Counted from the stretch's first letter, positions 2,817 through 27,859 are shown. The stretch is 64,000 bases of DNA from Gammaproteobacteria bacterium (GCA_046347035.1 JAXMGY010000001.1:18485-82484); one strand, 5' to 3'. Notes: a model not told the origin generated them from the sequence alone. Program-made: numbers and translations.

Positions 2817-4333
2817 TCACTTCATCGTCGGCATGGAGAATTCCGCGCGCGCACTCTTACCCGTGGGCCAACGCCCGGTGACGGTTTTCAGTCGCGTGTA
2901 AAAGCGCACACCGTCCGGACCGTGAACATGCAGTGGACCGAACAGGGAATTTTTCCAACCGCCGAAGCTGTGGAACGCCATCGGTACGGGAATTGGAATA
3001 TTGACACCCACCATTCCTGCTTCGATGCGTTGCGTGTAGCGCCGTGCGTTGTCACCGTCGCGCGTGAAAATTGCCGTGCCGTTGCCGTACTCATGTTTAT
3101 TGACTAGTTCGATGGCGGAGTCGAGATCGGGTACGCGCACGACGCACAACACCGGACCGAAGATTTCTTCACGATAGATCTTCATATTCGCGGTGACATG
3201 ATCGAACAGACAGCCGCCAAGGTAAAAGCCTTTTTCATGTCCCGGCACGCGCAGGCCGCGTCCGTCGACGACCAACTTTGCGCCTTCAGCAACACCGGCA
3301 TCCACGTACGCGGAAACCTTGTCACGATGCTCACCCGTCACCAGCGGCCCCATCTCTGCGTCGCGATCAGTGCCGATGTTGATGCGCAGTGCTTTCACGC
3401 GCGGTGCTAACGCGTTGACCAGCGCGTCGGCGACATCACCCACCGCCACTGCCACCGAAATCGCCATGCAGCGCTCGCCCGGGATCCATAGGCCGCGCCC
3501 ATCAAGCGTTCGCCGGCCATGTCGAGATCGGCATCCGGCATCACAACCATGTGATTTTTCGCGCCACCCAGCGCCTGCACGCGCTTGCCGTGGCGCGATC
3601 CTTCACTGTAGATGTATTGCGCAATCGGTGTGGAGCCGACAAAACTCACCGCACCCACGCGCGGATCCGACAGCAGTGTATCTACGGCTTCCTTGTCGCC
3701 ATTGACGACGTTGAGCACACCGTCCGGTAAGCCCGCTTCCTTCAATAGTTCCGCCAACCGCAGTGGCGGCGATGGATCGCGCTCGGACGGCTTCAATACG
3801 AAGGTATTGCCGCAGGCGATCGCCACCGGAAACATCCACATTGGCACCATGCAAGGGAAGTTAAAGGGCGTGATGCCGGCGCAAACACCTACCGGTTGGC
3901 GCAGCGACCAACTATCCACATCCGAGCCGACGTTTTCGGAAAACTCGCCTTTCAGCAAATGTGGAATGCCGCAGACAAATTCCACCACTTCCAGGCCGCG
4001 CGTCAGTTCACCGCGCGCATCGCTCAGTACCTTGCCATGTTCGGAGGTGATCAGCGCGGCGAGTTCGTCGGCGTTGCGCTCGATCAATTCTTTGAAGCGA
4101 AACATCACCCGCGCACGATTCAACGGTGTTGTGGCAGCCCATGCCGGCAAGGCTTTGGTGGCGGCGCTGATGGCCGCTGCCGTTTCAGACTGATTGGCCA
4201 GCGCTAACTTGGCAGTGACTTCGCCCGTGGCGGGATTGAAAACATTGCCAAGCCGCCCACTGTTGCCAGCGACGTGCGCGCCATTGATGAAATGACCTAG
4301 TTGTTTCACTCCAGTCTCCAGTAAATCATTCAT
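2817..4333 (-). pseudogene. mmsA: CoA-acylating methylmalonate/malonate-semialdehyde dehydrogenase (MmsA/BauC family), split by a frameshift near 3407-3470
   Basis: The 308-aa ORF 3407..4333 is an ALDH N-terminus. The 216-aa ORF 2817..3467 is the matching C-terminus ('EIFGPVL', 'PFGG'). Together they span about 505 aa, the expected MmsA length. Confidence 0.8.
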
Positions 4334-13886: not shown

Positions 13887-15299
13887 ATGATTACCAAAGA
13901 CATGCTGATCAACGGTCGGATGCAGGCCGGCACGGGAGGTGACTACGATGTGCTCAATCCCGCCACGGGCAAGTCACTGATCAAGGTCCCACAGGCAGGT
14001 GCCGAGCAGATCGACGCGGCGGTCGCCGGCGCGCAGGGCGCGTTTGACGCCTGGTCGCGCACTACGCCGCAGGAGCGCTCGTTGATTCTGTTGAAGTTGG
14101 CCGATCGCATCGAAAGTAACGCTGAGGTTTTTGCCAAGCTCGAATCGCAAAACTGCGGCAAGCCCTACGCACGCGTGCTGGTCGATGAAATGCCGGCCAT
14201 CGTCGATGTGTTTCGTTACTTTGCCGGCGCCGTGCGTTGCATGACCGGCAGTGCCGCTGATGAATATATCTCCGGCTTCACCAGCATGATCCGCCGCGAT
14301 CCCGTGGGCGTGGTGGCTTCGATCGCGCCATGGAATTATCCATTGATGATGGCGGCATGGAAAATTGCGCCCGCCATCGCCGCCGGTAACACCATTGTGC
14401 TGAAGCCGTCCGAGCAAACACCGCTGACAACTTTGAAGCTTGCCGAGATCGCCGCGGAGTTTCTGCCGCCTGGAGTGCTCAACATCGTCACCGGCGTGGG
14501 CGATCCGGTGGGCACCACGCTCATCAATCATCCCGGCGTGAAGATGATTTCACTGACTGGCAGCATCGCCACTGGCCATAAGGTGCTCGAAGCCGCCTCA
14601 CGCAGCATCAAGCGCACGCATCTGGAATTGGGTGGCAAGGCACCGGTGATTGTCTTTGACGATGCTGACATCAACGAGGTGGTGCAGGGGATTAAAGTGT
14701 TTGGCTACTACAATGCCGGCCAGGATTGCACAGCCGCCTGCCGCATCTACGCCGAAGCGCGCATCTATGAAAAATTGGTGGCCGATCTGGGTGCCGCCGT
14801 CAGCGACATTAAATATGGACAGCCGGAAGACGATGCGTCGGAAATCGGGCCGTTGATCAGCGCGCGGCAACGCGATCGCGTTGCCGGCTTTGTCGATCGC
14901 GCGCGCACCAAGAAGCACATCGAAGTAGTCGCCGGTGGCAATCCTGGGGAAGGCGCGGTTTTTTCTATCAACCCACACTCGTCGCCGGTGCGCATCAGGA
15001 TGATGAAATCGTGCGCCAGGAAGTGTTCGGCCCGGTGGTATCGGTAACGCGTTTTGCCGATGTGGATCAGGCGGTCGCTCTGGGCGAATGACTCGAATAC
15101 GGCTTGGCTTCCTCGGTGTGGAGTCAGGAATATCAGTCGCGCCATGCAGGTGGCTTCACGGCTGCAATATGGATGCACGTGGATCAATACGCACTTCATG
15201 CTGTGTTCGAAAATGCCGCATGGTGGCTTCAAACAATCCGGCTATGGCAAGGATCTTTCCATGTACGCGCTGGAAGACTACACCACGTGCGCCATGTGA
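13887..15299 (+). pseudogene. patD: Gamma-aminobutyraldehyde dehydrogenase (PatD/YdcW family); the 3' third is disrupted by about three frameshifts
   Basis: ORF 13887..15047 carries the ALDH core ('PWNYPLMMAAWK', 'ELGGKAP'). Shifted frames downstream still read 'GFFYQPTLVAG...EVFGPVVSVTRF' and 'PHGGFKQSGYGKDLSMYALEDYT'. Confidence 0.75.
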
Positions 15300-15309
15300 T
15301 GGTCAAGCT

Positions 15310-15882
15310 TTGACTACGGTAACGGCGCCGAACCTCAATACGCTGCCGGCGGATCTGCCGGTACCGAAGGATGATGGTGCCGCGGATCACTTGGTTGGTT
15401 TGTCATTGCCTGCTGTATCGCTGCCGGCAACCACCGGTCCGGCTATCAATCCGGCCACACTGCGTGGCATCGCTGTCATCTACTGCTATCCGATGACGGG
15501 CCGGCCCAACGTGCCCTTGCCGGAGGGTTGGGATGCCATACCCGGCGCGCGCGGCTGCACGCCGCAGTCCTGCGCCTTTCGCGATCACTATTCGGAACTG
15601 CAGCAGTTGGGCGCGAAGGTGTTTGGCGTCAGCACACAGAGCACCGACTACCAACGCGAGGCCGCCGAGAGACTGCACCTGCCGTTCGCGTTGCTCAGCG
15701 ATGTGGATTTGAATTTTGCGAATGCATTGCGATTGCCAGCATTTCAAGTCGATGGTATGCAGTTGATCAAGCGGCTGACTTTGATTGCCCGCGACGCGTC
15801 AATCGTCAAAGTGTTCTATCCGGTATTTCCATCGGATCGGAATGCCGGAGATGTCGTCCAGTGGTTGAAGTCACATGCATGA
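15310..15882 (+). CDS. Peroxiredoxin (AhpC/TSA-Bcp-like)
   Basis: 'GCTPQSCAFRD' peroxidatic-Cys context and 'KVFGVSTQS'. The upstream part of track ORF 15088..15882 is read-through of the patD tail. Start proposed at TTG 15310, just after the patD stop. Confidence 0.6.
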   Translation: MTTVTAPNLNTLPADLPVPKDDGAADHLVGLSLPAVSLPATTGPAINPATLRGIAVIYCYPMTGRPNVPLPEGWDAIPGARGCTPQSCAFRDHYSELQQLGAKVFGVSTQSTDYQREAAERLHLPFALLSDVDLNFANALRLPAFQVDGMQLIKRLTLIARDASIVKVFYPVFPSDRNAGDVVQWLKSHA

Positions 15883-16505
15883 TCGGCTCAACGCCAAACA
15901 GATTCCGCGCGGCAGGCATCAGGATCGCTACCTAAGTTTCGAGGAACTTGCTGCGGTCGAACGCGAGGATATCGACTACCGCATCGTGGTGCGCGAAGTG
16001 CCAGGTGCGTCGCATGCTGTTATCACACCGCATGGCGGCGGCATCGAGCGCGGCACCACGCAAATCGCGCGCGCCATCGCTGGCGACACGCATCATCTCT
16101 ATCTGTTTGAAGGGTTGAAACCGCGCGGCAATCTCAATGCACTCCACATCACCAGCCGCCGCTTCGATGAGCCCCGTTGCCTTGAATTAGTTGCGCGCAG
16201 CGAGACTGTCATCAGTGTGCATGGTTGCGGGTCTGGATGAGCGGGTGTACATTGGTGGTTTGCACGAAGAGCTGAAGTTGGCTGTCGCGAGTGCATTGGA
16301 AGGAATTGGTGTTGAAGCGTGTCTTGACGATCACGCATTCCCAGCTATCAACTCTGACAACATATGCAATCGCGGCGTAAGCGGACGCGGCGTGCAACTG
16401 GAATTCACAACGGGTATTCGGCGGCTGATGAAATCGCCGCTCATCGGTACGGCGATCAGAGATGTTCTAGCCAACACAATAAATCCAAGTATTCAAATAG
16501 GTTAG
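15875..16505 (+). pseudogene. Poly-gamma-glutamate hydrolase family protein (YjqB/UPF0714-like), frameshift near 16235
   Basis: ORFs 15875..16240 and 16191..16505 tile one protein ('VITPHGGGIERGT', 'SVHGC'). Confidence 0.5.
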
Positions 16506-16777
16506 TCAAAATATTTAACAAGCGCTGTAAGGCTGTAGAACTACAGCGCAAGCTATTGATCGCAACGTTAAAGGATAGATATGCGCTTGGGATGAGAATC
16601 AACAGCGCTCGTTGTAGTAAAAAATTCACTTGACGAATTCGTGACGAAGTGAACTAAACTAAATGCCATGGAACGATGGCGGCTATAGCTGAGATCGTTA
16701 CTGGAAACGCTTGTCGCTAAACAGCGATTGAGCGTTCCCTTAAAGGTGCAACGGAATTTGTCCTAAGGGGAATGGAC

Positions 16778-17461
16778 ATGGGAGAGGTGTTGCGCATATG
16801 GATTTCAGAGGGACGACGGCTTCGCGTTACACTCGCGCTGCTGTTCTGCTTGCATTTTCTCCTCTACTCCCCGCTTCTCTTTGCAGGCTCCGGCTCGTTG
16901 CTGGATTGCACGCAACATCGCTGTGATCTTCTGAAAGATGGTGCGTATCAAGAATTTATTATCGGTACCGTTGCAGCTGTTGGCACCGATGATGACACGC
17001 GCGGCCTCGTCAAATGGGCCAAATTAAATGGCTTTTGGTCGTCCGCACTTGACGATACCGAAGCTTATGTTCGCACCGCTACTGTCGTTCTAATCAACGT
17101 CGCTGGCATCACGCCCACCGCTCCCATTCCGGTTCTCGTCACCAAGACGGAGTTGGGTGCCGCCACCCTCAAGCCGGGCGATTTGCTTAGGTATGGACCA
17201 CATATTGAAAGGTACAAGCATTGGCGTGGCGATCCGGCCGAAACGGGAATCTACAACGAGCTTACCGGCTACTACATCATTCTGTGTGGCCACCAAAATA
17301 TGGACTGTTTTAAAGACTACGTGCAGGGAGCCTTTAATCGCCAAAGTGGCCGACAAATTGAAATCTTTGGCAAGCAAGAAATCGCAAATGGCGTGGTGAT
17401 TGACACTAAACGGCTACAGCCCGTGTCAAATCCAAGTGTCGAGGAAAGTGAATCAAAGTAA
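16778..17461 (+). CDS. Hypothetical secreted/membrane-anchored protein immediately upstream of the RHS toxin gene
   Basis: N-terminal hydrophobic segment 'LRVTLALLFCLHFLLYSPLLFAG'. AAGGGGA RBS 6 nt before the ATG at 16778. A Cys-Gly-His triad-like stretch 'YYIILCGHQNMDC'. No family recognised. Confidence 0.5.
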   Translation: MGEVLRIWISEGRRLRVTLALLFCLHFLLYSPLLFAGSGSLLDCTQHRCDLLKDGAYQEFIIGTVAAVGTDDDTRGLVKWAKLNGFWSSALDDTEAYVRTATVVLINVAGITPTAPIPVLVTKTELGAATLKPGDLLRYGPHIERYKHWRGDPAETGIYNELTGYYIILCGHQNMDCFKDYVQGAFNRQSGRQIEIFGKQEIANGVVIDTKRLQPVSNPSVEESESK

Positions 17462-17569
17462 CAGCTATCGCTGGGAACAAAGTATTGCGACCGCAAGTAA
17501 TTTGAGGGCATTTCGAGAACTACAAAGCACCGTCACTAGAGCTGTAGGAGAAGGGAAAGGAGATCGGCA

Positions 17570-20500
17570 ATGAAAAAGGTGTCTTGGACGATATGGGCTG
17601 TCGTTGTAGTTGTGGTGACACTGGCATTTGAAAAAGCAGGGGCGACCCCAGTACCGGAAAATGGACTGTCAGATCTCATTACAGCCTTGCAGCTAACAGA
17701 ACCGGTCGTCGCGACGACTAAATCAACCGACCAAGACCGAGCCGAAATCGAACGTCTCATCGAGCGCACCGCTTCGATGTCTCGTGCGGAGAAAGCTGAA
17801 GCGATTGCCGAGTTTATCGATCATCACCCCCACTCGCCTTTTCGAGTTGCACTCGAAGCTAATCTGGGCTTTCAGTACCTGCATGACGGATATGTTTCCA
17901 GGGCGATCACGTCGCTCAGCGCTGCCTGGGAGCACGGGCGAGAGGCGCGCGGATTAGCCATTGAAGCGCTTGTAGACAAAGCTGTTGGTGACCTGCTTGT
18001 CACCCACGCACGTCTGGGGCACAGCAATGAGACCGAACGTTTACTGACTGAGATTTCCGGGCGACCCATCATGGGTAGCGCAGATGTCGCAGTCAGCACC
18101 GCTCGGGACGGCCTGTGGCAAATCCAACATGAACCGGAACAGGCACTGCGCTGTGGGGCTATGGCATTGAACGCACTGCTGCAGTCGCGGCACAGCGACG
18201 CGGCTCTGCGATCCGAATTGATGAACATCGCGGTCGATAAACAAGGCATGAGCCTCGCGCAGATTGCTAAACTGGCTGAGCACCACGGCGTTACCTTGAA
18301 AGCGGTCAGGTCCCTGCAACGCGATGCTGTTGTACCGGTGCCCGCGATTGTGCATTGGAATGTGGGCCACTACGCGGCGGTGCTTGCGAAAAACGGCAAG
18401 GAATATCTAGTCGATGACCCGGTATTCGGCGGACGTAAATGGATTTCGTCGGATGCACTGCAAGCAGAGACAAGCGGACACTTCCTTGTTCTTGCCGATG
18501 CGCCGGCTACAGATTGGGCCGAGCTTGCGACAAAAGAGGCTGCAAACATTCGTGGTGCGGGATACACAAACACCGACGATCCTCTCTACACCCGCCCGCA
18601 GGATCACAAGGAGTGCGACCAACCTTGCGGCAGCAGCAACCCTCCTGGGGGAATGCCGGTCCCTGCTGTGCACTCGATGCTGGTGAGCCTGAACATTGTC
18701 GACCGACCCGTGAGTTACACCCCGCCCAAGGGGACCGACGTCGACGTGGTGCTGACCTACAACCAGAAAGAATCAGACCTTCAACCAGCCGTATTCACGT
18801 ACTCAAACTTTGGTCCCAAATGGAACTTCAACTGGCTAAGTTTCATACAGGATGACCCAAACTCGCCCGGCAACAGTGTTATGCGTTACGTCGCTGGTGG
18901 TGGTGGGCAACGTTATTCCGGCTTCAATTCGTCGACGGGTGCCTTTACACCCGAGAAGCGCAGCGGCGCCCAGTTGGTGAAGACGGCTGCGAATACCTAC
19001 GAATTGAGGGATGCCGACGGTTCTAAGGAAGTGTTCGGATTTTCCGACGGAAGCACGGGTTATCCTCGCAAGATATTCATGACACAACGTGTTGACGCAG
19101 CCGGTAATGCCGTGACGCTGCAGTACGATGCACAACGTCGCCTCACCGGAATCGTCGATGCCATCGGGCAGACCACGACACTGCAATACACCCACACCAA
19201 TCCGTTACTGATAACAGCGATAACCGATCCTTTTGGTCGAAAAGCGACTGTTACGTACGATACGTCGGGAAGGCTGTCTTCGATCAAGGACGCGATCAAT
19301 CTAACGTCCTCGTTTACCTACGATACAGGTACATTCATCACCGCGATGACTACCCCGTACGGAACCACCCAATTCGCTTACGGGGAGGGAGATAACCGCC
19401 AGCGATGGCTTGAGATCACCGATGCGCTCGGTAAGAAGTCGCGCGTCGAGTTCCGGCACAACGCACCATATCCCGCTTTTGATCAGACGCCACCGACAAA
19501 CGACTTTCGAACCACGTGGTTTCACTCACGGAATACCTACTATTGGGATCAAACCGCGATGGCATTAGCGCCAGGTGACTATACCAAGGCCCGCATCAAG
19601 CACTGGGTGCATCGAGGAGACAAAGACAGCGAAACCGACGGTGTTCTTGAGTCGGTAAAATATCCACTCGAAAACCAGATTTGGTACAAGTACCCTGGTC
19701 AAGGTGACACAGCCTTCAGTGGCAGCTTTGACAAACCAATTCTGATTGCGCAGACGCAACCTGACGGCACGGCAAAACTGGAGAGATATGAATACAACCA
19801 GTTCGGCAAAGTGACCCGCTACATCAACCCACTCGGCCACGAGTACGTCTACGAATATGACACTAACCAAATCGATTTGCTGCGGATCAAGCGACGCAGG
19901 GTAAGCACTGACACGCTCGATACCTTTGCGCAATACACTTACAACACGCAGCACCGCGTTCTCACATATACCGATGCTGCAGGCGGTATCACGAGATATA
20001 CGTACAACACCGCTGGGCAGCTTCTCTCTCAGATCACGCCGGCAAACGAGACGACCAGTTACGCTTATGACGCCAAGGGCTATCTCACCAGCATCACCAA
20101 TCCCCGCGCGCAGACAGCGGTAACCTATACATACGATGCCGTCGGCCGCGTCAACAAGCGCACTGATTCGCAAGGATCTATCCAATATGCCTATGACAAT
20201 TTGGATCGGCTGACGACAACGACATACAGCGACACGACGACGGAAACGAACACATACGACAAGCTGGACGTGAGCGTTGCAAAAGATCGCAACGGAAAGC
20301 TTACCCGCTATGCATACGATGCGGTTCGCAATCTCGTCTCAGTCACCGATCCGCTTAATCAGGTGGTGCAATACACCTACTTCGAGAACCGTTTACCCAA
20401 GACAGTTAAGGATGCACGCAATAATGTGACAAGCTGGACGCGTGATATTCAGGGGCGAGTACTCAGCGAAAGCAGTCCTGATCGCGGCGCTACCACATAT

Positions 20501-22378
20501 ACATACGATGTGGTCGGCAATCTCGCAACGACGACGGACGCAAGAGGAAACACCACAACCTATACTAGGGACAAACTCAGACGTCTCACCAAAGAGCTGT
20601 ACAGCAATGGCGAAACGTCAGATTTTGCTTACGACGGCACAGTCAACGGCGAGCTAGGGACTCTTACGAACGCAACCAAGGTCGGTCCGTTCAAGTATGA
20701 TAGCCGCGGTTGGTTGGTTGAGCAGGGCGGTGGTAGTACGCAAACCGAAACCGTCTCCGTCGTTGGAGTAATCTTAATTGCTGGGCGACCTTTCCTGACT
20801 CGAGTCCCGCAGGTGGTTGTAGCGACACCTCCACGCACATTGTACAGCTACACATCCGCTGGACGGTTAGCATCAATCACGTATCCGTCTGGCAAAGTTG
20901 TTACTTACAACTACAGCGGTGGAATGGTATCCGACGTGTCAGTCAATGGAACCACAATTCTAAGTAATGTTACCCATACTCCCATGGAGCCCATCACGGG
21001 TTGGACGTGGGGTAACGGTACGGTGCACCCGAGAACGCTTGATGCGGACTATCATGTGAGAAGTTACAAGATTGGATCAGCCACACGAGACCTCACCTAT
21101 GATTCCGAAGGGAATCTACTCATCGTTGTCGATAGCGCGACGTCCAGTCTTGGTCCCACCTATACAAACGCAGATGATTTGGGCAGGGTGATCAGTGAAA
21201 CGAATCTTGCCAAGAACCTGGCTTGGACGTACGACTCAAATGGCAATCGAATTTCAACACGAATTGGACTTGGAAATACGCCCTACAGCCTTACGTACAG
21301 CGGTTCGAGCAACCGCTTGCTCTCGCTCTCTGGTCCCACAGCACGTACCTTTACGTATGATGCGGCGGGCAATATTACTTCAAACGGAAGCTTGATATAT
21401 CAGTATAGCGCACGTGGCAGATTAGCCGCGGTGAATCCACAGGCGCTTACCAGTTGGTCTAACTATCGGTACAACGCACTGGGCCAGCTGCGTGCCCGCG
21501 ATATGGACGCGGATACGAATCGTCGATTTGCCTACGACCCGGCCGGTCACCTGCTTGGTGAGTATTCGTCTTTGAGTGGTGGCTTCAGCCAGGAGACGGT
21601 ATGGCTAGGCGACATCCCGGTGGCGGTGCTGTCGGGCACCAACACCATTCAGTACATCCACGCCGACCATCTGAACACGCCGCGGGCGCTCACGGACACG
21701 ACGGGCAAGGTGCTGTGGCGCTGGGACTCCAACGCTTTTGGCGAGGGATTGCCGAATGAGGATGTGGACGGCGACGGGGTGAAGGTGACCTACAACCTGC
21801 GCTTCCCTGGTCAGTACTACGACAAGGTCACGGGCAAGCACTACAATTACTTCCGCGACTACGATCCGGAAACCGGGCGCTACCTGGAGTCCGATCCGAT
21901 TGGACTCGCGGGGGGCTTGAATACTTACGCCTATGTCGGTGCGAATCCGCTGACTAGATTTGATCCGTTTGGGTTGGCTTGGAACTGTACTTATGTTCAA
22001 TCAACCGGCCGGTTGTATTGCGTCGACGATGAAACCGGGAAATCTGTTTATGAGCGCTGCTATTCCGGCTCAGAGAGTCGAGGTGGGAAAAACGATCCCG
22101 ATAAGGAATCAGAGAGAAGAACCGGACCGATACCCCGTGGAGGTTGGGACATAGGCGGCTATGATAACTCCAAAGGCCCCCGAACCATCGACCTCTCTCC
22201 CAGATCGGGTACGGAAACATACGGTCGTGATCTGTTCCGAATACACGGTGACAGTCGCAGGCACCCTGGCAACGCGTCGGAAGGGTGTATTATCTGCGAC
22301 CTTTTAACACGTGAAAAGCTAACCAATGGATCAGGCGGTACTGTAACTGTCATCCGCGCAGAACCATTTGCAAACTAG
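17570..22378 (+). CDS. RHS-repeat polymorphic toxin with Sec signal peptide, C39-like peptidase domain, YD/RHS repeats, RHS core (ending ...DPIGLAGGLNTYAYVGANPLTRFDPFGL) and a C-terminal L,D-transpeptidase-like toxin tip
   Basis: Intact 1602-aa ORF. Signal peptide 'MKKVSWTIWAVVVVVVTLAFEKAGA'. C39-like motifs 'ALRCGAMALNALL' (Cys195) and 'VHWNVGHYAAVL' (His267). Many YD-type repeats ('YTYD', 'YAYD', 'TYTYD'). Core 'RFPGQYYDKVTGKHYNYFRDYDPETGRYLESDPIGL'. Tip motif 'RIHGDSRRHPGNASEGCII'. Confidence 0.9.
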   Translation: MKKVSWTIWAVVVVVVTLAFEKAGATPVPENGLSDLITALQLTEPVVATTKSTDQDRAEIERLIERTASMSRAEKAEAIAEFIDHHPHSPFRVALEANLGFQYLHDGYVSRAITSLSAAWEHGREARGLAIEALVDKAVGDLLVTHARLGHSNETERLLTEISGRPIMGSADVAVSTARDGLWQIQHEPEQALRCGAMALNALLQSRHSDAALRSELMNIAVDKQGMSLAQIAKLAEHHGVTLKAVRSLQRDAVVPVPAIVHWNVGHYAAVLAKNGKEYLVDDPVFGGRKWISSDALQAETSGHFLVLADAPATDWAELATKEAANIRGAGYTNTDDPLYTRPQDHKECDQPCGSSNPPGGMPVPAVHSMLVSLNIVDRPVSYTPPKGTDVDVVLTYNQKESDLQPAVFTYSNFGPKWNFNWLSFIQDDPNSPGNSVMRYVAGGGGQRYSGFNSSTGAFTPEKRSGAQLVKTAANTYELRDADGSKEVFGFSDGSTGYPRKIFMTQRVDAAGNAVTLQYDAQRRLTGIVDAIGQTTTLQYTHTNPLLITAITDPFGRKATVTYDTSGRLSSIKDAINLTSSFTYDTGTFITAMTTPYGTTQFAYGEGDNRQRWLEITDALGKKSRVEFRHNAPYPAFDQTPPTNDFRTTWFHSRNTYYWDQTAMALAPGDYTKARIKHWVHRGDKDSETDGVLESVKYPLENQIWYKYPGQGDTAFSGSFDKPILIAQTQPDGTAKLERYEYNQFGKVTRYINPLGHEYVYEYDTNQIDLLRIKRRRVSTDTLDTFAQYTYNTQHRVLTYTDAAGGITRYTYNTAGQLLSQITPANETTSYAYDAKGYLTSITNPRAQTAVTYTYDAVGRVNKRTDSQGSIQYAYDNLDRLTTTTYSDTTTETNTYDKLDVSVAKDRNGKLTRYAYDAVRNLVSVTDPLNQVVQYTYFENRLPKTVKDARNNVTSWTRDIQGRVLSESSPDRGATTYTYDVVGNLATTTDARGNTTTYTRDKLRRLTKELYSNGETSDFAYDGTVNGELGTLTNATKVGPFKYDSRGWLVEQGGGSTQTETVSVVGVILIAGRPFLTRVPQVVVATPPRTLYSYTSAGRLASITYPSGKVVTYNYSGGMVSDVSVNGTTILSNVTHTPMEPITGWTWGNGTVHPRTLDADYHVRSYKIGSATRDLTYDSEGNLLIVVDSATSSLGPTYTNADDLGRVISETNLAKNLAWTYDSNGNRISTRIGLGNTPYSLTYSGSSNRLLSLSGPTARTFTYDAAGNITSNGSLIYQYSARGRLAAVNPQALTSWSNYRYNALGQLRARDMDADTNRRFAYDPAGHLLGEYSSLSGGFSQETVWLGDIPVAVLSGTNTIQYIHADHLNTPRALTDTTGKVLWRWDSNAFGEGLPNEDVDGDGVKVTYNLRFPGQYYDKVTGKHYNYFRDYDPETGRYLESDPIGLAGGLNTYAYVGANPLTRFDPFGLAWNCTYVQSTGRLYCVDDETGKSVYERCYSGSESRGGKNDPDKESERRTGPIPRGGWDIGGYDNSKGPRTIDLSPRSGTETYGRDLFRIHGDSRRHPGNASEGCIICDLLTREKLTNGSGGTVTVIRAEPFAN

Positions 22379-23060
22379 AGAGCATGCAGCTATGCGTTCC
22401 GAGATAAGACAAGCCAAAATCTTTCGTTTGTTTTTGGTGATATGTTGTTTCTGTTGTTGGCCGTTGACTCGCTGCTTGGCGAGCAGCAGCCAGATTGCGT
22501 TACCTGAATATGTCGATGACATATTTGGGTGGCACGCTGGTACGACAACATTAACTAATGTGCAAGGACTGATGGGGCAGTCACCATTTCATGTTCGCGG
22601 AGATGCTGCGTCGTCAGAAACATTCATTTGTTATGTCATCAGAGACACCAACCAGTCTTGGATAGTCACGTTTACGTCTGACAATGAACTTGCAGACGTG
22701 TCGTCTCACGAATTAACCGGAATTGAGCTGACTCGTCTCGATGCAGGGTTGCATGCTAGCAACGATTGCACGGTCGCACTGGATAATCGTGACGTAATGA
22801 CCCTTGTAAGGATGAGTGAGACTGATTTTATGGCGAAGTTTTCTCCACCGGTTGTTCATAAAGGCGAATACGGCGGCTCTATCTGCGTCGAAAATCCAAT
22901 TGATCGGAAAGATCCTGCATACCAGTACTGGCGGGGGAAGAAGAACTGTTTCCCGGAGGGGAAGGAACCATATGTCAATGTGTGCACGACATGGGGCGCG
23001 CAGTTTCGAGATAAAGTTCTCACGAAGTTGACGGTGAAAAGGGTTTCTAGTGTGTGTTAA
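22368..23060 (+). CDS. Putative periplasmic immunity protein cognate to the RHS toxin tip
   Basis: Overlaps the RHS stop, suggesting translational coupling. Signal peptide 'IFRLFLVICCFCCWPLTRCLASS'. Alternative start Met at 22392. No known family. Its position directly after the toxin tip follows the usual RHS toxin/immunity arrangement. Confidence 0.55.
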   Translation: MQTREHAAMRSEIRQAKIFRLFLVICCFCCWPLTRCLASSSQIALPEYVDDIFGWHAGTTTLTNVQGLMGQSPFHVRGDAASSETFICYVIRDTNQSWIVTFTSDNELADVSSHELTGIELTRLDAGLHASNDCTVALDNRDVMTLVRMSETDFMAKFSPPVVHKGEYGGSICVENPIDRKDPAYQYWRGKKNCFPEGKEPYVNVCTTWGAQFRDKVLTKLTVKRVSSVC

Positions 23061-23099
23061 TGTTCTTGGAGCAATTTGGAGAGGCAGCACAAAAACAAT

Positions 23100-23320
23100 C
23101 GAGGACGTAGGGCGGACGGCATCAATACATATACGTACAATGGCCGTGGCCGGCTCTACACGGCACAAGATATTTCGATCACGCCCCGTGGGTTAGACGG
23201 TTGGTCGTACTATCGCTACGACGGATTAGGTCTGATGTCGGGGCGCGATATTAACGGAGAGAGCCGACGCTTTACTTACGACCCGGCCGGACATTTGCTT
23301 GCTGAGGCAGGAAATAGGGG
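23100..23320 (+). pseudogene. Degenerate RHS fragment (displaced cassette remnant), truncated at the junction element
   Basis: Reads 'NTYTYNGRGRLYTAQDISITPRGLDGWSYYRYDGLG...RRFTYDPAGHLLAEAGN'. Parallel to the start of the next cassette but stops at 23311. Confidence 0.5.
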
Positions 23321-23378
23321 TCGGAGTGAATTAATTTGGTGCATGGAAACGGTCGCGCCAATTCAAACACTTCGATCC
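23311..23378 (+). repeat. Conserved ~70-bp junction element, copy 1, at an RHS cassette boundary
   Basis: GAAATAGGGGTCGGAGTGAATTAATTTGGTGCA..GCGCCAATTCAAACACTTCGATCCC. About 80% identical to 24966..25036. Contains an imperfect hairpin (GAATTaatTTGG / CCAATTC). Confidence 0.6.
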
Positions 23379-24235
23379 CGTTACTCTTCGCTGTACAGGG
23401 CAACGCATTCAATCCGCGTGGTTTGGATGGGTGGGTGTACTATCGTTACGACGGATTGGGGCGCATGCGTGGACGAGATGTTAATGGAGAGGTAAACCGA
23501 CGCTTTGCCTACGATCCGGCCGGACATCTGCTCGCTGATGCAGGCCAGGAGACGGTGTGGCTGGGCGACATTCCGGTGGCGGTGCTGTCGGGCACCAACA
23601 CCATCCAGTACGTCCACGCCGACTATCTGAATACGCCGCGTGTGATCACGGACATGACGGGCAAGGTGCTGTGGCGGTGGGACTCCAACGCTTTTGGAGA
23701 GGGATTGCCGAACGAGGATGTGGACGGCGATGGCGTGAAGGTGACCTACAACCTGCGCTTTCCTGGGCAGTACTACGACAAGGTTACCGGCAAGCACTAC
23801 AATTACTTCCGCGACTACGATCCGGAAACCGGGCGCTACCTGGAGTCCGATCCGATTGGGTTGGCGGGCGGCATTAACACATATGCGTATGTGGGCGGCA
23901 ATCCACTGGCATTCATAGATCCAACCGGTGAAATAAGGATCCCCAGGAAATGGCTAGAGTGTTTAGTATTGCTGGGCTGCTTGCATGGGAAGCCAGAAGA
24001 ACCTGGTTCTACCCGTCCGGTTCGGCCTGAAGTTCCGACACAAGTTAAGCCGCCTGTGCCCGTATCCGGCTCAAAAGATCCCGATAAGGACGACTGCGAA
24101 TCGCCGGATAGTGAGCCGGCACCTAAAACGACTCCGACACCGATGACCCCCATATCTGAGCCGTCCGTTCCTTGGTGGTTGCCGCTGATACCACTAATAC
24201 CGTTCCCTGGGAATCCGATTTATGGTGGACTCTGA
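23336..24235 (+). CDS. Orphan RHS C-terminal cassette: RHS core with an alternative, Pro-rich C-terminal tip; no RHS body
   Basis: A 315-bp segment (23545..23859) is about 93% identical to RHS 21589..21903. Core 'DPIGLAGGINTYAYVGGNPLAFIDPTGE', then the novel tip '...KDPDKDDCESPDSEPAPKTTPTPMTPISEPSVPWWLPLIPLIPFPGNPIYGGL'. The apparent TTG start lies inside the junction element. Confidence 0.6.
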   Translation: MVHGNGRANSNTSIPLLFAVQGNAFNPRGLDGWVYYRYDGLGRMRGRDVNGEVNRRFAYDPAGHLLADAGQETVWLGDIPVAVLSGTNTIQYVHADYLNTPRVITDMTGKVLWRWDSNAFGEGLPNEDVDGDGVKVTYNLRFPGQYYDKVTGKHYNYFRDYDPETGRYLESDPIGLAGGINTYAYVGGNPLAFIDPTGEIRIPRKWLECLVLLGCLHGKPEEPGSTRPVRPEVPTQVKPPVPVSGSKDPDKDDCESPDSEPAPKTTPTPMTPISEPSVPWWLPLIPLIPFPGNPIYGGL

Positions 24236-24292
24236 CCGTTCAGCGACACGTGGAGGATGCCTTGGGTACGAAAGAGATTCTGGGAGGTAGCT

Positions 24293-24886
24293 ATGAATAT
24301 CCGTTTACGAGCCGAAAGTGACGACAAGTATTTGGGGGATATTTCCGATGCGCTAAAACTGCAGGATCGTGATCCTGTGCGAGTATTTCAGGAACTCCTG
24401 CGCCTTGCTCAGAATGGCTCGATAAACAGCATGCTTGAGCTGGGCTGGGCTTATAAGAAAGGATTGGGAACAAAAACGGACACTGATGAGGCAGCCAGGT
24501 GGTTTCGACGAGCATATGACGGTGGGGCTACACAGGCAGCTCTGTATCTTGGAGGCATTTATTGGCGCATGGAGAAGTATGCGGATGCCCGTGATATATT
24601 TGCTAAAGGCGGCGAAGACGGAGATCCAGTGTGTCTCTATTGGCTTGGGCGAATGTATCAGGACGGCATTGCTGTCGAGAAAGCTCCCGACAAAGCCTAC
24701 GACCTATACGTGCAGGCCTCAGCAGGCGGTAGTTTGATCGCAAGAGCTGCTGCTGCGCGACTTCTAATGTCCGGGAGGTGTGGTGCCTCGCGTATTCTCG
24801 TTGGAGTGTACCAGTACGTCATAACGATGTTTTCTGCACTAGTATCATGCTTCCGAAAGGAGACCAATCACAGCCTTAGGCATTAA
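24293..24886 (+). CDS. Sel1/TPR-like repeat protein, putative immunity protein for the orphan cassette
   Basis: Sel1-like repeats ('LGWAYKKGLGTKTDTDEAARWFRRAYDGG', 'LGRMYQDGIAVEKAPDKAYDLY'). GGGAGG RBS 6 nt before the ATG at 24293. Sits directly 3' of the toxin tip. Confidence 0.55.
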   Translation: MNIRLRAESDDKYLGDISDALKLQDRDPVRVFQELLRLAQNGSINSMLELGWAYKKGLGTKTDTDEAARWFRRAYDGGATQAALYLGGIYWRMEKYADARDIFAKGGEDGDPVCLYWLGRMYQDGIAVEKAPDKAYDLYVQASAGGSLIARAAAARLLMSGRCGASRILVGVYQYVITMFSALVSCFRKETNHSLRH

Positions 24887-24929
24887 CGCAAATTGAAAAT
24901 GGGTCGTTGTTGTTTATCTTTCCGCCGCC

Positions 24930-25036
24930 CGCACGTACACATACGATGCGGCCGGCAACATCACAGGAATAAGGTGTCGGAGTGAATTACTTTGGTGCAC
25001 GCGAAGCGGTAGCGCCAATTCGATTTACTTCGACCC
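24930..25036 (+). repeat. Third RHS remnant ('RTYTYDAAGNITGIR') fused to junction element copy 2 (24966..25036)
   Basis: GGAATAAGGTGTCGGAGTGAATTACTTTGGTGCA..GCGCCAATTCGATTTACTTCGACCCC. The YD-repeat remnant compares with 'TFTYDAAGNITSNGS' at RHS ~21340. Confidence 0.55.
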
Positions 25037-25331
25037 CATCTCCTCGGTGTCACGTGCTATCGTTGCCATCATGACCGCGGTCAAGCAAGCCGAACTGGCT
25101 GGGTTCGATATAGGTCTGATTGATGAGAGCAAGCGTTGTTCCTACGAGCAACGCGCGCTTCAACATCAAGAAGCGCTGAGTCTGGCGTTAGAACTTGAGA
25201 GAGTGGGGCAGCAGCTGCGTAATGGATCTCAACCGACTGCTGTTACGCCTGAGCGAAGCTGAGGTGAGTTAACGGGTTGGATGAATTTGCTTTGTCGAAT
25301 GTCACTTTTCGCCTTGCTGCTTCAACATCCG

Positions 25332-25625
25332 CTACGTTCGTGTGGAGCCATAAGTTGGGCGTCGGCGATCATGTTTGACCACCAGAACGAGGATGCCTTC
25401 AGTCACTACCCTGTATACGACGGTATAGGGAAAGCCAGAGGTCGGGAAGCCACGGCGACCGCGAGATCGGGGTGTACCAATGCTTGGGTTTTGAAGTAGA
25501 AGTTTTGCAACGCGCTCAAACTCCGCGATGAATTTGTCAGCGAGTGCTGTTGAAGCTTGGGATTCCTAGAACGCGGCTGCCTCGGCAACGTCTCGCGCTG
25601 CGCCTGGATGTAGAACGACTCTCAT
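25332..25625 (-). pseudogene. parE: ParE/RelE-family toxin inactivated by an in-frame amber stop at codon 20
   Basis: My own translation of the reverse complement gives MRVVLHPGAARDVAEAAAF*ESQASTALADKFIAEFERVAKLLLQNPSIGTPRSRGRRGFPTSGFPYTVVYRVVTEGILVLVVKHDRRRPTYGSTRT*. ATG at 25625-25623. Its start overlaps the stop of the antitoxin (ATGA). The TAG at 25568-25566 is where Tyr is expected (FYE). Confidence 0.6.
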
Positions 25626-25849
25626 CCAGGGAATCGCGCCCGGAGTCGTGCCATGGCCCCCTCAAGTGGTACGGCTACAACTTGTCCAGATTGAAGCTCT
25701 GCCTCACGCGATTCGGCGAGTTGCTCCCACTCTTCTTCCGCCGCAACATCCACATCCAGACTCGCGACGAGATGTTCAAGCAGGCGTGTGCGATCGGCTT
25801 TCGAAAGACTGAGAATTTGAGCTTGCAGGATTTCAAGGTTGGTACTCAT
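25622..25849 (-). CDS. Addiction-module antitoxin component (TIGR02574-like), partner of the ParE pseudogene
   Basis: 'MSTNLEILQAQILSLSKADRTRLLEHLVASLD...EEEWEQLAESREAELQSGQV' is the typical small acidic antidote. Start at the internal Met (25849) of track ORF 25622..25897. Confidence 0.6.
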   Translation of the reverse strand: MSTNLEILQAQILSLSKADRTRLLEHLVASLDVDVAAEEEWEQLAESREAELQSGQVVAVPLEGAMARLRARFPG

Positions 25850-26508
25850 AGGTTCTCTGGTCTCCAAGCTGCACAGTGCATGGCAAGCTTGCCACATCTG
25901 GAAGAACGGAGTCAGAGTTATTTACCTTGCCAAACGCAGAAAAAGCAAAGGGGCCGCGAGGGCCTTTGCGTTACAACCTAGCGAACCGATTAACGGTTGC
26001 TGATGTACATCGTGACTTCGAAGCCAAAACGGACGTCAGCGAAAGCAGGAGTTTCCAAGCCATGTTCGTATCCTCTAATAAGTATGTGAATTCGGGGTAA
26101 TGAACGACTACTAATCTATATAGAGCAGGGCCCGTGCCACGATCTGCCCGCACCAGCAAGATCGGCTTTTATGTTAATAATAACAATAGGTTATGTGCAC
26201 GTGTCCAAGATTGTGTGGTAGCAGCAGTCACCCGATCCAGGGCTCAAAATTGATGTAGAAAACCAACCAGTTGGTTGCCAGTAACCAATTGCACCAGCCG
26301 GTTCTTCGTTCCAATTCATCCCGAAGTCAGCCTGCCAGCCGCGAAACGAGGGCACTCTGAAAGCCCGCAATCACTATTAACGGCGTGACTCGCGCCGTTT
26401 CCCGCCGTGTTTTCGACGCCGAAAAGTGTGTCGTCATCCGCAGGTTGCGCGCCATCCAGCAAATAGTATGAGACTACAAAAGTGTCACCAAGCGGTGGAG
26501 GCAGGAGC

Positions 26509-27859
26509 ATGAAAACAACACTTCGATGTGTATCGATATTGGCTGGGCTGGTCATCACAAGTGGCGCTCACGCCGCCGTGCAACTGGAACGCCTTACTAT
26601 GGGCGCCAACAGCCTGGTTATTCCACCGCCATCGGCAACCAACTTTTCATGCTGGAGCAGGGTGGCAATATCAAGCTTTACGACATGCAGACCAAGACCA
26701 CCACGAATTTTCTGAATGCCAACCAGCTCGGCAGTACTTTCGTGACCGGCGGTGAAACTGGTTTACTTGGCATCGCCTTCGATCCCGACTACGCGAAGAA
26801 CGGTTACTTTTACGTCAACACCACGCATCGGGATGCGAATTACAATGGTAATCGAATTTATGGCGAGGTCACTCGCTACACTCGATCTGCCACTGATCCC
26901 GCAAAGCCGACGCGAGTTCGGCGATGTCAATGATCAAGATTCCGAAGAATGAGATTAAAGTGAACGGTGTTCCCACTGACTTCACCAATCACAACGCCGG
27001 CTGGATTGGATTTGGCAACGACAAGATGCTGTACATCTCCACCGGTGATGGCGGCAGTGGCGGCGATCCCACTGGCAATGCGCAAAATGGCCAGAGCCTG
27101 CTCGGCAAAATCCTCCGTCTTGATGTAAGCAATCCAACGATCAGCTACGCCATTCCCAAGGACAATCCCTTTGCCAATGGGAATGGCGGTGCCAACGCCA
27201 ATTTCCTGGATGAAATTTGGGCCTACGGACTTCGCAACCCTTTCCGTGCTGGCTTCGATAGTAAGACTGGCAATTTATTCATTGGCGATGTCGGGCAAGG
27301 TGCCTGGGAGGAAGTCGATCGCGCGATGGCTGGCGTGGGCGGCATAAATTTTGGTTGGAACCTGAGAGAGGGAGCGCACAACTATGGCGGCTTTAATGGC
27401 AGTACGGCCGGCCTGACTGATCCAATTTTCAACTACGACCATTCCCAAGGTCAGTCTGTCATTGGCGGTACCGTATTCCACGGTGGCGGTGAACTCGATG
27501 GCAAGTACCTGTTCAGCGATTTTTACAACGGCGGCAAAATTTGGGCACTGGATCCAAACTGCACCGCGAACTGTCAGATGACGAACGTGATTTTCACCAC
27601 CACAGCTGGAACGATAGGTGCCATATCGAGTTTCACCACCGATGCCGCTGGCAACATGTACATCACGGACTACAACGGTGCGGTTTATCGGCTCTCGGCG
27701 GTATCGCCGGCGCCAGTTCCCGCACCGGCTGCCGCGTGGCTGTTGGGATCCGGATTGCTGGGACTGACGCGCGCGCGCCGCAGGCAGTGGCAGATCAAAT
27801 TGATTCAAGCCAGCGCTGAGCGCCGTCATTCCCGCGCAGCCTGCCCCGGCAGGTTGTAA
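26509..27859 (+). pseudogene. Soluble glucose/sorbosone dehydrogenase-like beta-propeller protein with C-terminal PEP-CTERM sorting signal; two frameshifts
   Basis: Signal peptide 'MKTTLRCVSILAGLVITSGAHAA'. Propeller motifs 'GLLGIAFDPDYAKNGYFYV' and 'WAYGLRNPFRAGFD' spread over three frames (26482.., 26526.., 26924..). C-terminus 'VSPAPVPAPAAAWLLGSGLLGLTRARRR' is the PEP-CTERM pattern. Confidence 0.6.

Follow-up and report, generated by a model that had tools for sequence, protein, structure and literature searches.

Does the C-terminal tip of the Rhs protein encoded at this locus act as a cell wall-targeting toxin, and is the small gene behind it the matching immunity gene? Both questions arose from an earlier note based on the DNA alone, and they were pursued here over the whole stretch of DNA that was analyzed (64 kb, referred to as the window). 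In our judgment, the locus is probably a polymorphic Rhs toxin/immunity cassette consisting of a Sec-exported carrier, an L,D-peptidase tip, and a secreted immunity protein. Domain identities, fold prediction, conservation of the catalytic residues, and adjacency of the toxin and immunity genes form the basis of this reading; autocleavage, the specificity of the enzyme, its inhibition by the immunity protein, and its route of delivery we infer.

The Rhs carrier protein

The full-length Rhs polymorphic toxin gene (17570..22378, on the plus strand like all features within and downstream of it) encodes a protein of 1602 aa, as seen in the ORF list and by Pfam and NCBIfam. Its NCBI record, MFO1434846.1, is annotated as an “RHS repeat-associated core domain-containing protein” of the MAG Gammaproteobacteria bacterium. 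Pfam detected RHS_repeat (202 bits in 11 stretches), RHS, Peptidase_C39, and Tlde1_dom, while NCBIfam detected YD_repeat_2x and Rhs_assc_core. Sequence reading and hydropathy predict a Sec-type signal peptide, MKKVSWTIWAVVVVVVTLAFEKAGA, at 17570..17644 (12-residue hydropathy maximum of 2.96 at residues 8 to 19), which would be cleaved at its end, directly before TP. The Peptidase C39-like domain (aa 194 to 311; 18149..18502; PF03412, 49.4 bits) aligns to PDB 6mpz with an E value of 1.5e-6, and its residues C195, H267, and D283 match the conserved motifs of double-glycine proteases. This head module is also kept in an Rhs protein of Verrucomicrobiota (L006). Self-processing at a conserved double glycine after the C39 domain was considered and dropped, as no GG is common to the alignment of the window protein with L006.

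The RHS-associated core (21734..21976; TIGR03696, aa 1389 to 1469, 75.8 bits) has a DPIGL...DPFGL end, and direct reading of the DNA places DPFGL at 21962-21976. Since DPxGL is the Rhs cleavage motif (bioRxiv 10.1101/2024.02.26.582050), DPIGL...DPFGL would be the expected autoproteolytic junction, with the tip released inside the Rhs shell. Two features that define Rhs/YD-repeat polymorphic toxins were thus found: the shell repeats with a core ending in DPxGL, and a variable C-terminal toxin that is followed by its candidate cognate immunity gene, with orphan modules downstream.

The C-terminal tip as a predicted L,D-peptidase

The earlier note had placed a tip of ~133 aa with an H...SxGC motif after DPFGL, and direct DNA reading bore this out: the tip is 133 aa long and occupies 21977..22375, beginning at residue 1470 of the Rhs protein (nt 21977). 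The note had also proposed a profile comparison against YkuD (PF03734) and DUF2778. It succeeded for DUF2778, as the isolated tip matches PF10908 (Tlde1_dom) with 34.0 bits (Pfam cutoff, 30.1; E = 4.6e-8), but not for YkuD, as no PF03734 match was obtained for the tip at E ≤ 0.1. Within the full-length Rhs protein, the Tlde1_dom score is 25.6 bits, under the Pfam cutoff. PF10908 is present in 80/80 word-indexed tip homologues, and an exhaustive phmmer search with the tip returned 1561 proteins at E ≤ 1e-3 and 449 at E ≤ 1e-10. Given the PF10908 E value and these phmmer counts, the sequence resemblance of the tip to Tlde1 goes far beyond chance. A more distant tie to YkuD is seen in a weak match of the tip-family profile to the YkuD structure 4lpq (E = 0.0096), in which the HG...S-x-GC block is aligned, and in one relative of the tip (P0148) that matches both the PF10908 and PF03734 models. 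Searching 185,579 species genomes for the tip gave no match, so that a representative of this species is either absent from them or lacks the tip; in plasmid records, only stand-alone Tlde1 genes were found.

A phmmer search of PDB sequences with the tip gave only chance matches, among which Tlde1a was absent, and a fold search was therefore needed. The AlphaFold2 model of the tip (pLDDT 94.5, pTM 0.89) was matched by Foldseek to the LD-transpeptidase fold at all of ranks 1 to 12, including Tlde1a (7uo3_A, TMq 0.61, probability 1.00). The credible PDB matches are exclusively enzymes of this fold, among them the LD-carboxypeptidases Pgp2 and Bd1075, Tlde1a, and YkuD structures, with TM-scores in the moderate range of 0.5 to 0.63. 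With its Pfam score above threshold, its conserved His, Ser, Gly, and Cys positions, and its predicted LD-transpeptidase fold, the tip is best assigned to the Tlde1/DUF2778-type L,D-peptidase domains, much as the earlier note had supposed, and the corresponding activity is predicted.

The catalytic motif, RIHGDSRRHPGNASEGCIIC, comprises tip residues 88 to 107 (22238..22297), as read directly from the DNA and seen in the conservation among homologues. The tip pattern H-x10-S-E-G-C-I (H90, then S101-E102-G103-C104-I105) fits the signature H-x(10-17)-S-x-G-C-[IV], the codons of H90 and C104 being 22244-22246 and 22286-22288. H90 is conserved in 232/232 homologues, and S101, G103, and C104 are each conserved in 231/232; C104 is the likely nucleophile and H90 the likely general base. 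The canonical motif is (S/T)HGC, with His between Ser/Thr and Gly. In the tip this position is Glu, as in 130/232 homologues, while 25/232 have His, and its specificity may differ from that of Tlde1a.

The cysteines of the tip family occur in pairs. C4 and C15 are both present in 35 homologues, both absent in 7, and single in 2; for C28 and C107, the numbers are 13, 180, and 9. This pattern suggests disulfides like those of Tlde1a, in whose subfamily an inserted capping subdomain also covers the active site (PMC9638812). The co-occurring cysteine pairs favor a periplasmic site of tip action. The tip-family consensus has 120 columns compared to the 173 aa of Tlde1a, and the Foldseek TMt of 0.47 stands beside the TMq of 0.61 for 7uo3_A; the lengths and the model scores are consistent with absence of the capping insert, which the window tip may lack.

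Relation to known toxins

An L,D-transpeptidase-type tip on an Rhs scaffold had been taken by the earlier note to be new, and this claim did not hold. Zhang et al. had already catalogued Tox-LD-peptidase domains on RHS-repeat proteins in 2012, together with the immunity proteins linked to them, and gave the trafficking of this class as “T2SS” (signal peptide) and T6SS (PMC3482391). Rhs-DUF2778 fusions were reported in 2020 for 387 of 3510 (11%) genomes that carry one Tlde1 subfamily, Tae7 (bioRxiv 10.1101/2020.02.18.954545). In our own searches, eight further proteins combine RHS_repeat with Tlde1_dom, and an Rhs-core junction lies just 5' of the tip in at least 42 of the 232 collected homologues. 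The Rhs-Tlde1 design is thus known, and the window protein is one more example of it: another Rhs-borne Tlde1-type wall effector, of a class catalogued in 2012 and 2020, which leaves existing knowledge of the toxin unchanged.

Among characterized systems, Salmonella Tlde1a (Tae5, PF10908), of a family of T6SS effectors with L,D-carboxypeptidase and transpeptidase-exchange activity, resembles the window tip in Pfam family, in the His...Ser-x-Gly-Cys-hydrophobic block, and in predicted fold, as well as in the likely periplasmic target, the suggested disulfides, and the adjoining secreted immunity gene. Unlike the window tip, a ~120-aa domain that is fused to Rhs and has SEGC, Tlde1a (173 aa, with SHGC) stands alone and travels as Hcp cargo. 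Its immunity protein, Tldi1 (DUF2195), is unrelated to the window immunity protein, and the window tip has no T6SS genes nearby. The Rhs-DUF2778 fusions of the Tae7/Tlde1c subfamily (for instance, WP_052983304.1 of Shigella sonnei) and the Tox-LD-peptidase proteins share with the window protein the YD-repeat shell, DPxGL, the LD-peptidase tip, and linked immunity. The published Rhs-DUF2778 proteins are PAAR linked and the Tox-LD-peptidases are accompanied by Imm16 or Imm57, whereas the window protein has a signal peptide, a C39 domain, and another immunity family. The closest named homologues (44 to 57% identity) are stand-alone Tlde1 proteins of ~120 aa from Xenorhabdus, Pantoea, Erwinia, and Jejubacter, such as Pse10a/b of Pantoea agglomerans; they have the ASEGCII motif and the GPIPRG block in common with the window tip. 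The stand-alone proteins differ in being Hcp-linked cargo with unrelated immunity genes and in lacking the four extra cysteines that the Rhs-fused subclade typically has.

Delivery of the toxin

The head of the carrier is unusual in that a Sec signal peptide and a C39 module take the place of PAAR. Pfam and NCBIfam detected no T6SS domain in the ~40 window ORFs and the Rhs protein searched, and no PAAR, prePAAR, or VgrG-binding marker on the Rhs protein; delivery by a locally encoded T6SS is probably not the case. The same toxin and immunity protein might instead be served by a T6SS encoded elsewhere in the genome, of which the window covers just 64 kb, with a separate PAAR/VgrG adaptor loading the Rhs protein, an arrangement suggested earlier for the Rhs-DUF2778 protein of Shigella sonnei. 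Published Rhs-DUF2778 genes do lie near PAAR genes, T6SS genes are found close to 42.6% of Tae7 members (bioRxiv 10.1101/2020.02.18.954545), and the closest stand-alone homologue, in Pantoea, sits after an orphan Hcp gene. We nevertheless consider this route unlikely, given the Rhs N terminus with its signal peptide and C39 domain and the lack of T6SS domains in the ~40 window ORFs searched. Substrates of the T6SS are normally not exported by Sec. Moreover, the other full-length Rhs carriers of the tip subclade (P0084 and L003) also start with signal peptides and have no T6SS genes nearby.

In a bolder reading, which we hold to be rather unlikely as a whole, a Sec-exported, C39-headed Rhs protein would carry a periplasm-acting L,D-peptidase from one diderm bacterium to another with no T6SS involved, and the toxin would be neutralized by a new six-cysteine, BLIP/BamE-like immunity family. 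If true, it would represent an experimentally uncharacterized route of Rhs delivery. A Sec-routed Rhs protein with a periplasm-acting tip would also be a handy test case for the release and targeting of non-T6SS Rhs proteins in Gram-negative bacteria.

The probable immunity gene downstream

The candidate cognate immunity gene (22392..23060) encodes 222 aa from ATG 22392, with six cysteines in the mature protein. The earlier note had described an overlapping downstream ORF with a signal peptide; the same-strand ORF and the signal peptide were confirmed, while the overlap (11 nt with the Rhs stop) would exist only for a start at TTG 22368. ATG 22392, which lies 13 nt past the Rhs stop, is the more likely start. 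From either start, a positive N terminus is followed by the hydrophobic stretch IFRLFLVICCFC (mean Kyte-Doolittle value, 2.68) and a site between CLA and SS; the signal peptide predicted from this hydropathy, MRSEIRQAKIFRLFLVICCFCCWPLTRCLA, spans 22392..22481 and precedes SS. The NCBI version of the gene (MFO1434847.1) has 194 aa, starts at TTG 22476, and has lost the signal peptide, while the Logan gene caller yields the 222-aa form (P0233). Comparison with homologues disfavors TTG 22476, and the public annotation thus probably mis-starts the gene and hides its signal peptide.

Homologues of the immunity protein are encoded directly after the most closely related tips in four further loci (L001, L002, L003, and L011; tip identity, 54 to 62%), starting -13 to +5 nt from the toxin stop. 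They were recognized by BLASTP (2e-30 and 1e-17) and hhalign (99.7%), and their identity of 27 to 33% is far under that of the tips. In 5/5 family members with a neighboring tip, the N terminus is a signal or lipoprotein peptide and the mature part contains six cysteines; lipoboxes are recognizable in L002 (VSAC), L003 (VSAC), and L011 (ASGC). With adjacency conserved in four other loci, these export peptides, and the cysteines, the suggestion of a periplasmic immunity protein was upheld; the downstream ORF is likely the cognate immunity gene, and we infer that its product neutralizes the toxin.

The family is small and appears to be previously undescribed, the only new part of the toxin/immunity pairing. 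A single-sequence search retrieved only the protein's own record; a three-sequence profile retrieved 5 clusters and missed the L011 member, so that the family has at least 6 members. Pfam assigned no family to the window protein at E ≤ 0.1 and, at E ≤ 5, matched the five family members to nothing except CopK by chance. No sequence match was found to the known LD-peptidase immunity families Tldi1/DUF2195, Imm16/DUF2750, and Imm57; the stand-alone homologues of Pantoea and Xenorhabdus have unrelated immunity genes, and the neighbor of P0087 has no significant relation to the family. The fold search gave weak matches to BLIP/BamE (SmpA_OmlA)-like inhibitor and immunity folds (TsiN, BtiO, RhsI1, BLIP-like proteins, and DUF4309 YjgB). 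The family follows a single subclade of Tlde1 tips fused to Rhs; it could mark such cassettes and also supply a new scaffold for inhibitors of L,D-peptidases.

The lack of a match to DUF2195/Tldi1, Imm16, Imm57, or any Pfam family and the weak fold assignment might also be expected if the product were a periplasmic protein unconnected with the toxin, or an accessory or chaperone factor; the producer would then protect itself in another way, for instance by sequestration in the Rhs shell. This is very unlikely: five loci keep the gene beside tips of one subclade although their Rhs carriers differ, among them a locus with an orphan tip module and an immunity homologue (L002); the downstream protein diverges faster than the toxin; two loci (L004 and L005) hold an immunity copy without the toxin; and the compartment of the protein fits the toxin's expected target. 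The tip family itself was found on three carriers, which have a C39 N terminus (window), DUF6531 (P0084), or Ig-like domains (L003).

Proposed mechanism

In the immunity-gene reading, the Rhs protein would be exported through its Sec-type signal peptide, with the C39-type cysteine peptidase module followed by a YD-repeat shell that would enclose the 133-aa toxin. The core's own protease would cut between DPFGL and A and thereby free the toxin, a small Tlde1/DUF2778-family L,D-peptidase with a YkuD-like fold. By analogy with Salmonella Tlde1a, the periplasmic target of the toxin is expected to be the mDAP3-D-Ala4 bond in the tetrapeptide stems of peptidoglycan, with the toxin acting as an L,D-carboxypeptidase and/or swapping D-Ala4 for other D-amino acids; either activity would deplete the substrates of cross-linking and weaken the wall. 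In the producer's periplasm, the immunity protein, which is probably lipid anchored in relatives, would bind and block the toxin. Tlde1a is toxic in the periplasm only, and its toxicity is abolished by H121A and C131A (bioRxiv 10.1101/2020.02.18.954545).

That the tip is a degenerate or housekeeping wall-remodeling domain, one that helps the Rhs protein across the producer's own peptidoglycan, for instance, is hardly credible: the His of the canonical motif is replaced by Glu, classical YkuD enzymes are housekeeping enzymes, and the export route passes through the producer's periplasm, but all catalytic positions are kept, Glu is the majority state in the clade, the tip lies after the DPxGL junction in the toxin position of Rhs proteins, a fast-evolving neighbor and an array of orphan tips surround it, and the characterized members of the Tlde1 family are periplasmic toxins.

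The surrounding locus

Upstream of the Rhs gene, a 229-aa ORF (16772..17461) was considered as an accessory gene and dropped, as it has no Pfam or NCBIfam family and no counterpart in related loci. A promoter/terminator scan of 16400-25600 stayed at chance level. Downstream of the immunity gene, ORFs, Rhs_assc_core (83.7 bits), RHS_repeat, and two repeats (D1 and D2) define orphan Rhs C-terminal remnants at 23076..24235. One remnant (23076..23495) is truncated; in the other (23336..24235), the core ends in DPTGE and is followed by a Pro-rich tip whose type was not recognized. D1, a 300-nt stretch of the Rhs core identified by repeat search (21588..21887), recurs at 23544-23843 with 93% identity and is a putative recombination substrate for tip swapping. 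The Sel1-repeat protein encoded behind the remnants (24257..24886; Pfam Sel1, 47.9 bits) may, by its position, be the immunity protein of the orphan tip.

The Rhs tip is a Tlde1-type domain with a predicted L,D-transpeptidase fold

The listed Rhs ORF (17570..22378, forward strand) encodes 1602 amino acids. Direct reading of the DNA places the end of its core, DPFGL, at 21962-21976 and the 133-codon tip (AWNCTYVQ...RIHGDSRRHPGNASEGCIIC...PFAN) at 21977-22375, both on the forward strand. The catalytic-motif 20-mer RIHGDSRRHPGNASEGCIIC (tip residues 88-107; 22238-22297, forward strand) has the form H-x10-S-E-G-C-I; the earlier note had located both tip and motif correctly.

That note had proposed an L,D-transpeptidase (YkuD/Tlde1-like) tip and a check against the YkuD and DUF2778 profiles. 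The isolated tip matched Tlde1_dom (PF10908, formerly DUF2778) in Pfam at 34.0 bits (threshold 30.1, E 4.6e-8); the YkuD model (PF03734) gave no match to it at E<=0.1. The Tlde1_dom score falls to 25.6 bits when the tip is scanned within the full-length Rhs protein, which may be why the domain is unnamed in public annotation. A word-indexed search returned 80 homologues (33-65% identity), all 80 with PF10908 and most of them stand-alone proteins of ~120 amino acids from Xenorhabdus, Pantoea, Erwinia, Jejubacter, and others; exhaustive phmmer matched 1561 proteins at E<=1e-3. Tip residues H90, S101, G103, and C104 are each kept in at least 231 of 232 collected homologues, R84 in 228 and R112 in 216. 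Position 102, after the Ser, is Glu in 130/232 and His in 25/232 homologues, and SEGC is therefore the usual state of the tip clade and no defect.

The AlphaFold2 model of the tip, built from 76 sequences, reached a pLDDT of 94.5 and a pTM of 0.89. Its best 12 Foldseek matches in the PDB all have the L,D-transpeptidase fold, with scores collapsing below rank 12; they include YkuD (5bmq), the LD-carboxypeptidases Pgp2 and Bd1075, Tlde1a (7uo3_A, TMq 0.61), DpaA, and L,D-transpeptidases of Bacillus subtilis, Acinetobacter, and Klebsiella. In a tip-family profile, the FRIHG...ASEGCI block aligned with HG...ASHGCV of the YkuD structure 4lpq (E 0.0096).

Two cysteine pairs co-vary in the tip family: C4/C15 (both in 35 sequences, neither in 7, mixed in 2) and C28/C107 (both in 13, neither in 180, mixed in 9). 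All four are present in the window tip and its closest Rhs-fused relatives. Tlde1a has two structural disulfides (PMC9638812), and the co-variation fits a domain whose folding and action take place in an oxidising compartment.

The homologues vary in architecture. Two tandem Tlde1-like domains occur within single proteins of 258-325 amino acids (P0085, P0088, P0090, P0158, and P0168). In others, including P0034 and P0051, the N-terminus is extended by a segment that contains a LIG..TIGAIRK.Q motif and may be a peptidoglycan-binding domain. P0010 and P0184 have a PT-TG-like junction (…GAVTGAF..FN…) instead of the Rhs junction.

An L,D-transpeptidase-type tip on an RHS scaffold, which the earlier note regarded as a new pairing, was already known. 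Zhang et al. (2012) described 'Tox-LD-peptidase' polymorphic toxins with RHS repeats and assigned them the immunity families Imm16 and Imm57 (PMC3482391). The Tlde1 discovery preprint reported DUF2778 at the C-terminus of Rhs proteins, e.g., WP_052983304.1 of S. sonnei, and an Rhs-DUF2778 fusion in 387 of 3510 Tae7-carrying genomes (bioRxiv 10.1101/2020.02.18.954545). Eight long homologues likewise combine RHS_repeat with a C-terminal Tlde1_dom, and a DPxG[LW...] junction directly precedes the Tlde1 domain in 42/232. The proposed function and compartment hold, without the novelty; what is new at this locus is its family of immunity proteins, together with a carrier head made up of a signal peptide and a C39 module.

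A divergent family of probable exported immunity proteins

The downstream ORF overlaps the Rhs stop, as had been noted, when read from TTG 22368 (22368..23060, forward strand); its first ATG (22392..23060, forward strand) lies 13 nt past that stop. Searched alone against 5.8 billion clusters, the product matched only its own record, MFO1434847.1 ('hypothetical protein', 99% identity). Relatives were sought beside the closest tips, and then with a three-sequence profile (window, L001, and L002). At L001, a 1379-aa Rhs protein (P0084; signal peptide, DUF6531, tip 59% identical) is followed by a 196-aa ORF, and at L002 an orphan Rhs C-terminal module (P0083, tip 62%) by a 216-aa ORF; both ORFs are homologous to the window immunity protein (BLASTP 2e-30 and 1e-17). 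The profile brought the family to five clusters in total. Among them, P0231 (L003) follows a 2605-aa Rhs protein with Ig-like domains, the last 136 amino acids of which form a tip of this type. Downstream of P0086 (tip 54%), L011 encodes a sixth member (hhalign 99.7%, E 5e-26). Our analysis established the genetic linkage of toxin and immunity genes along with the domain identities.

Between loci, immunity proteins share 27-33% identity vs 54-62% for the tips, a difference to be expected where diversifying pressure acts on a toxin/antitoxin interface. None of the members has a Pfam match, and the family is therefore distinct from Tldi1/DUF2195, Imm16, and Imm57. It shows no relationship to the immunity genes that accompany the stand-alone tip homologues in Pantoea and Xenorhabdus.

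In the five toxin-linked loci, immunity genes start from 13 nt before to 13 nt after the toxin stop. All five proteins begin with a hydrophobic stretch (hydropathy 2.3-2.7), and the mature part of each contains six cysteines; lipoboxes can be recognised in those of L002, L003, and L011. The shared position, hydrophobic start, and cysteine content support a start at ATG 22392 (or TTG 22368) and the signal peptide and periplasmic location suggested before. NCBI instead places the start at TTG 22476 (MFO1434847.1, 194 aa), which removes the signal peptide (22392-22481); the five homologues argue against this, as does another gene caller, which yields the 222-aa form (P0233).

The profile-found P0232 (L004 803-1366; L005 672-1235) has no Tlde1 tip nearby and may be an orphan gene in an immunity island; on one side of it is a multi-pass membrane protein of 157 aa, on the other a 224-aa ORF. 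At L001 (5049-5522) and L002 (869-1387), Rhs is preceded by a small TPR protein of 157-172 aa, with no equivalent in the window.

The Rhs carrier and a model of delivery

The carrier is identical to MFO1434846.1 ('RHS repeat-associated core domain-containing protein') of a Gammaproteobacteria MAG. Pfam and NCBIfam identified 11 stretches of RHS/YD repeats (202 bits), an RHS-associated core at aa 1389-1469, and, at aa 194-311, a Peptidase_C39 domain (49 bits); they detected no PAAR, prePAAR, or VgrG-related domain. Residues 1-25 (hydropathy maximum 2.96) look like a Sec signal peptide. The C39 domain aligned to the double-glycine protease structure 6mpz (E 1.5e-6) and keeps the Cys (RCGAMAL), His (HWNVGHY), and Asp (DDP) motifs. 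A Verrucomicrobiota Rhs protein (L006) shares this head, i.e., signal peptide, helical region, and Peptidase_C39 in place of PAAR, at 35% identity over ~440 residues (window 17570-18600; L006 4903-6300). Its glycine-rich tip is unrelated to that of the window, and no T6SS genes were found among its neighbours. The head looks like a trafficking or processing module common to Rhs proteins across phyla.

The best-supported model, in which chemistry, cleavage, inhibition, and delivery of the Rhs toxin are inferred, runs as follows. The protein would be exported by Sec and would cleave itself at DPFGL|A, DPxGL being the cleavage motif of Rhs and Tc proteins (bioRxiv 10.1101/2024.02.26.582050), with the tip staying inside the shell. 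Once released into the target periplasm, the tip would, by analogy with Tlde1a (PMC9638812; bioRxiv 10.1101/2020.02.18.954545), use Cys104 and His90 to attack the mDAP3-D-Ala4 bond of tetrapeptide stems, and the secreted immunity protein would protect the producer. Delivery is the weakest of the five steps. T2SS, T6SS, and TcdB trafficking have been described for 'Tox-LD-peptidase' toxins (PMC3482391). A T6SS encoded elsewhere in the genome could deliver the window toxin, but we consider this improbable. No T6SS domains were found in ~40 other window ORFs, whose functions are housekeeping ones (sensor kinases, an aminotransferase, ABC transporters, aldehyde dehydrogenases, polyphosphate kinase, Pst/PhoR, a porin, and pyrimidine synthesis).

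Surroundings of the Rhs locus

A 300-nt Rhs-core stretch (21588-21887) has a 93% identical copy at 23544-23843, which falls within two orphan C-terminal remnants of Rhs genes: a truncated one (23076..23495) and another (23336..24235). This latter remnant ends in a Pro-rich tip (…EIRIPRKWLECLVLLGC…PWWLPLIPLIPFPGNPIYGGL) that differs from the window tip, and the Sel1-repeat protein that follows (24257..24886) may be its immunity protein. Repeat, remnants, and Sel1 gene form a classic Rhs orphan-module array. GC content is 52% in the tip and 47% in the immunity gene, against a window mean of 56%.

Two aldehyde dehydrogenase genes, a poly-gamma-glutamate hydrolase gene, and a glucose/sorbosone dehydrogenase (GSDH) gene are each split into two overlapping frames (2817-4333, 13887-15299, 15875-16505, and 26526-27859), which suggests assembly indel errors or pseudogenes; the reading frames of Rhs and of the immunity gene are unbroken. 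The C-terminus of the GSDH-like protein (26924-27859), …PAPAAAWLLGSGLLGLTRARRR, looks like a PEP-CTERM sorting signal. Directly upstream of Rhs, a 229-aa ORF (16772-17461) with an N-terminal hydrophobic segment matched neither Pfam nor NCBIfam and lacks a counterpart in related loci. Just downstream of the Rhs array, a small ORF (25622-25897, reverse strand) matches Unstab_antitox (PF09720, 'putative addiction module component').
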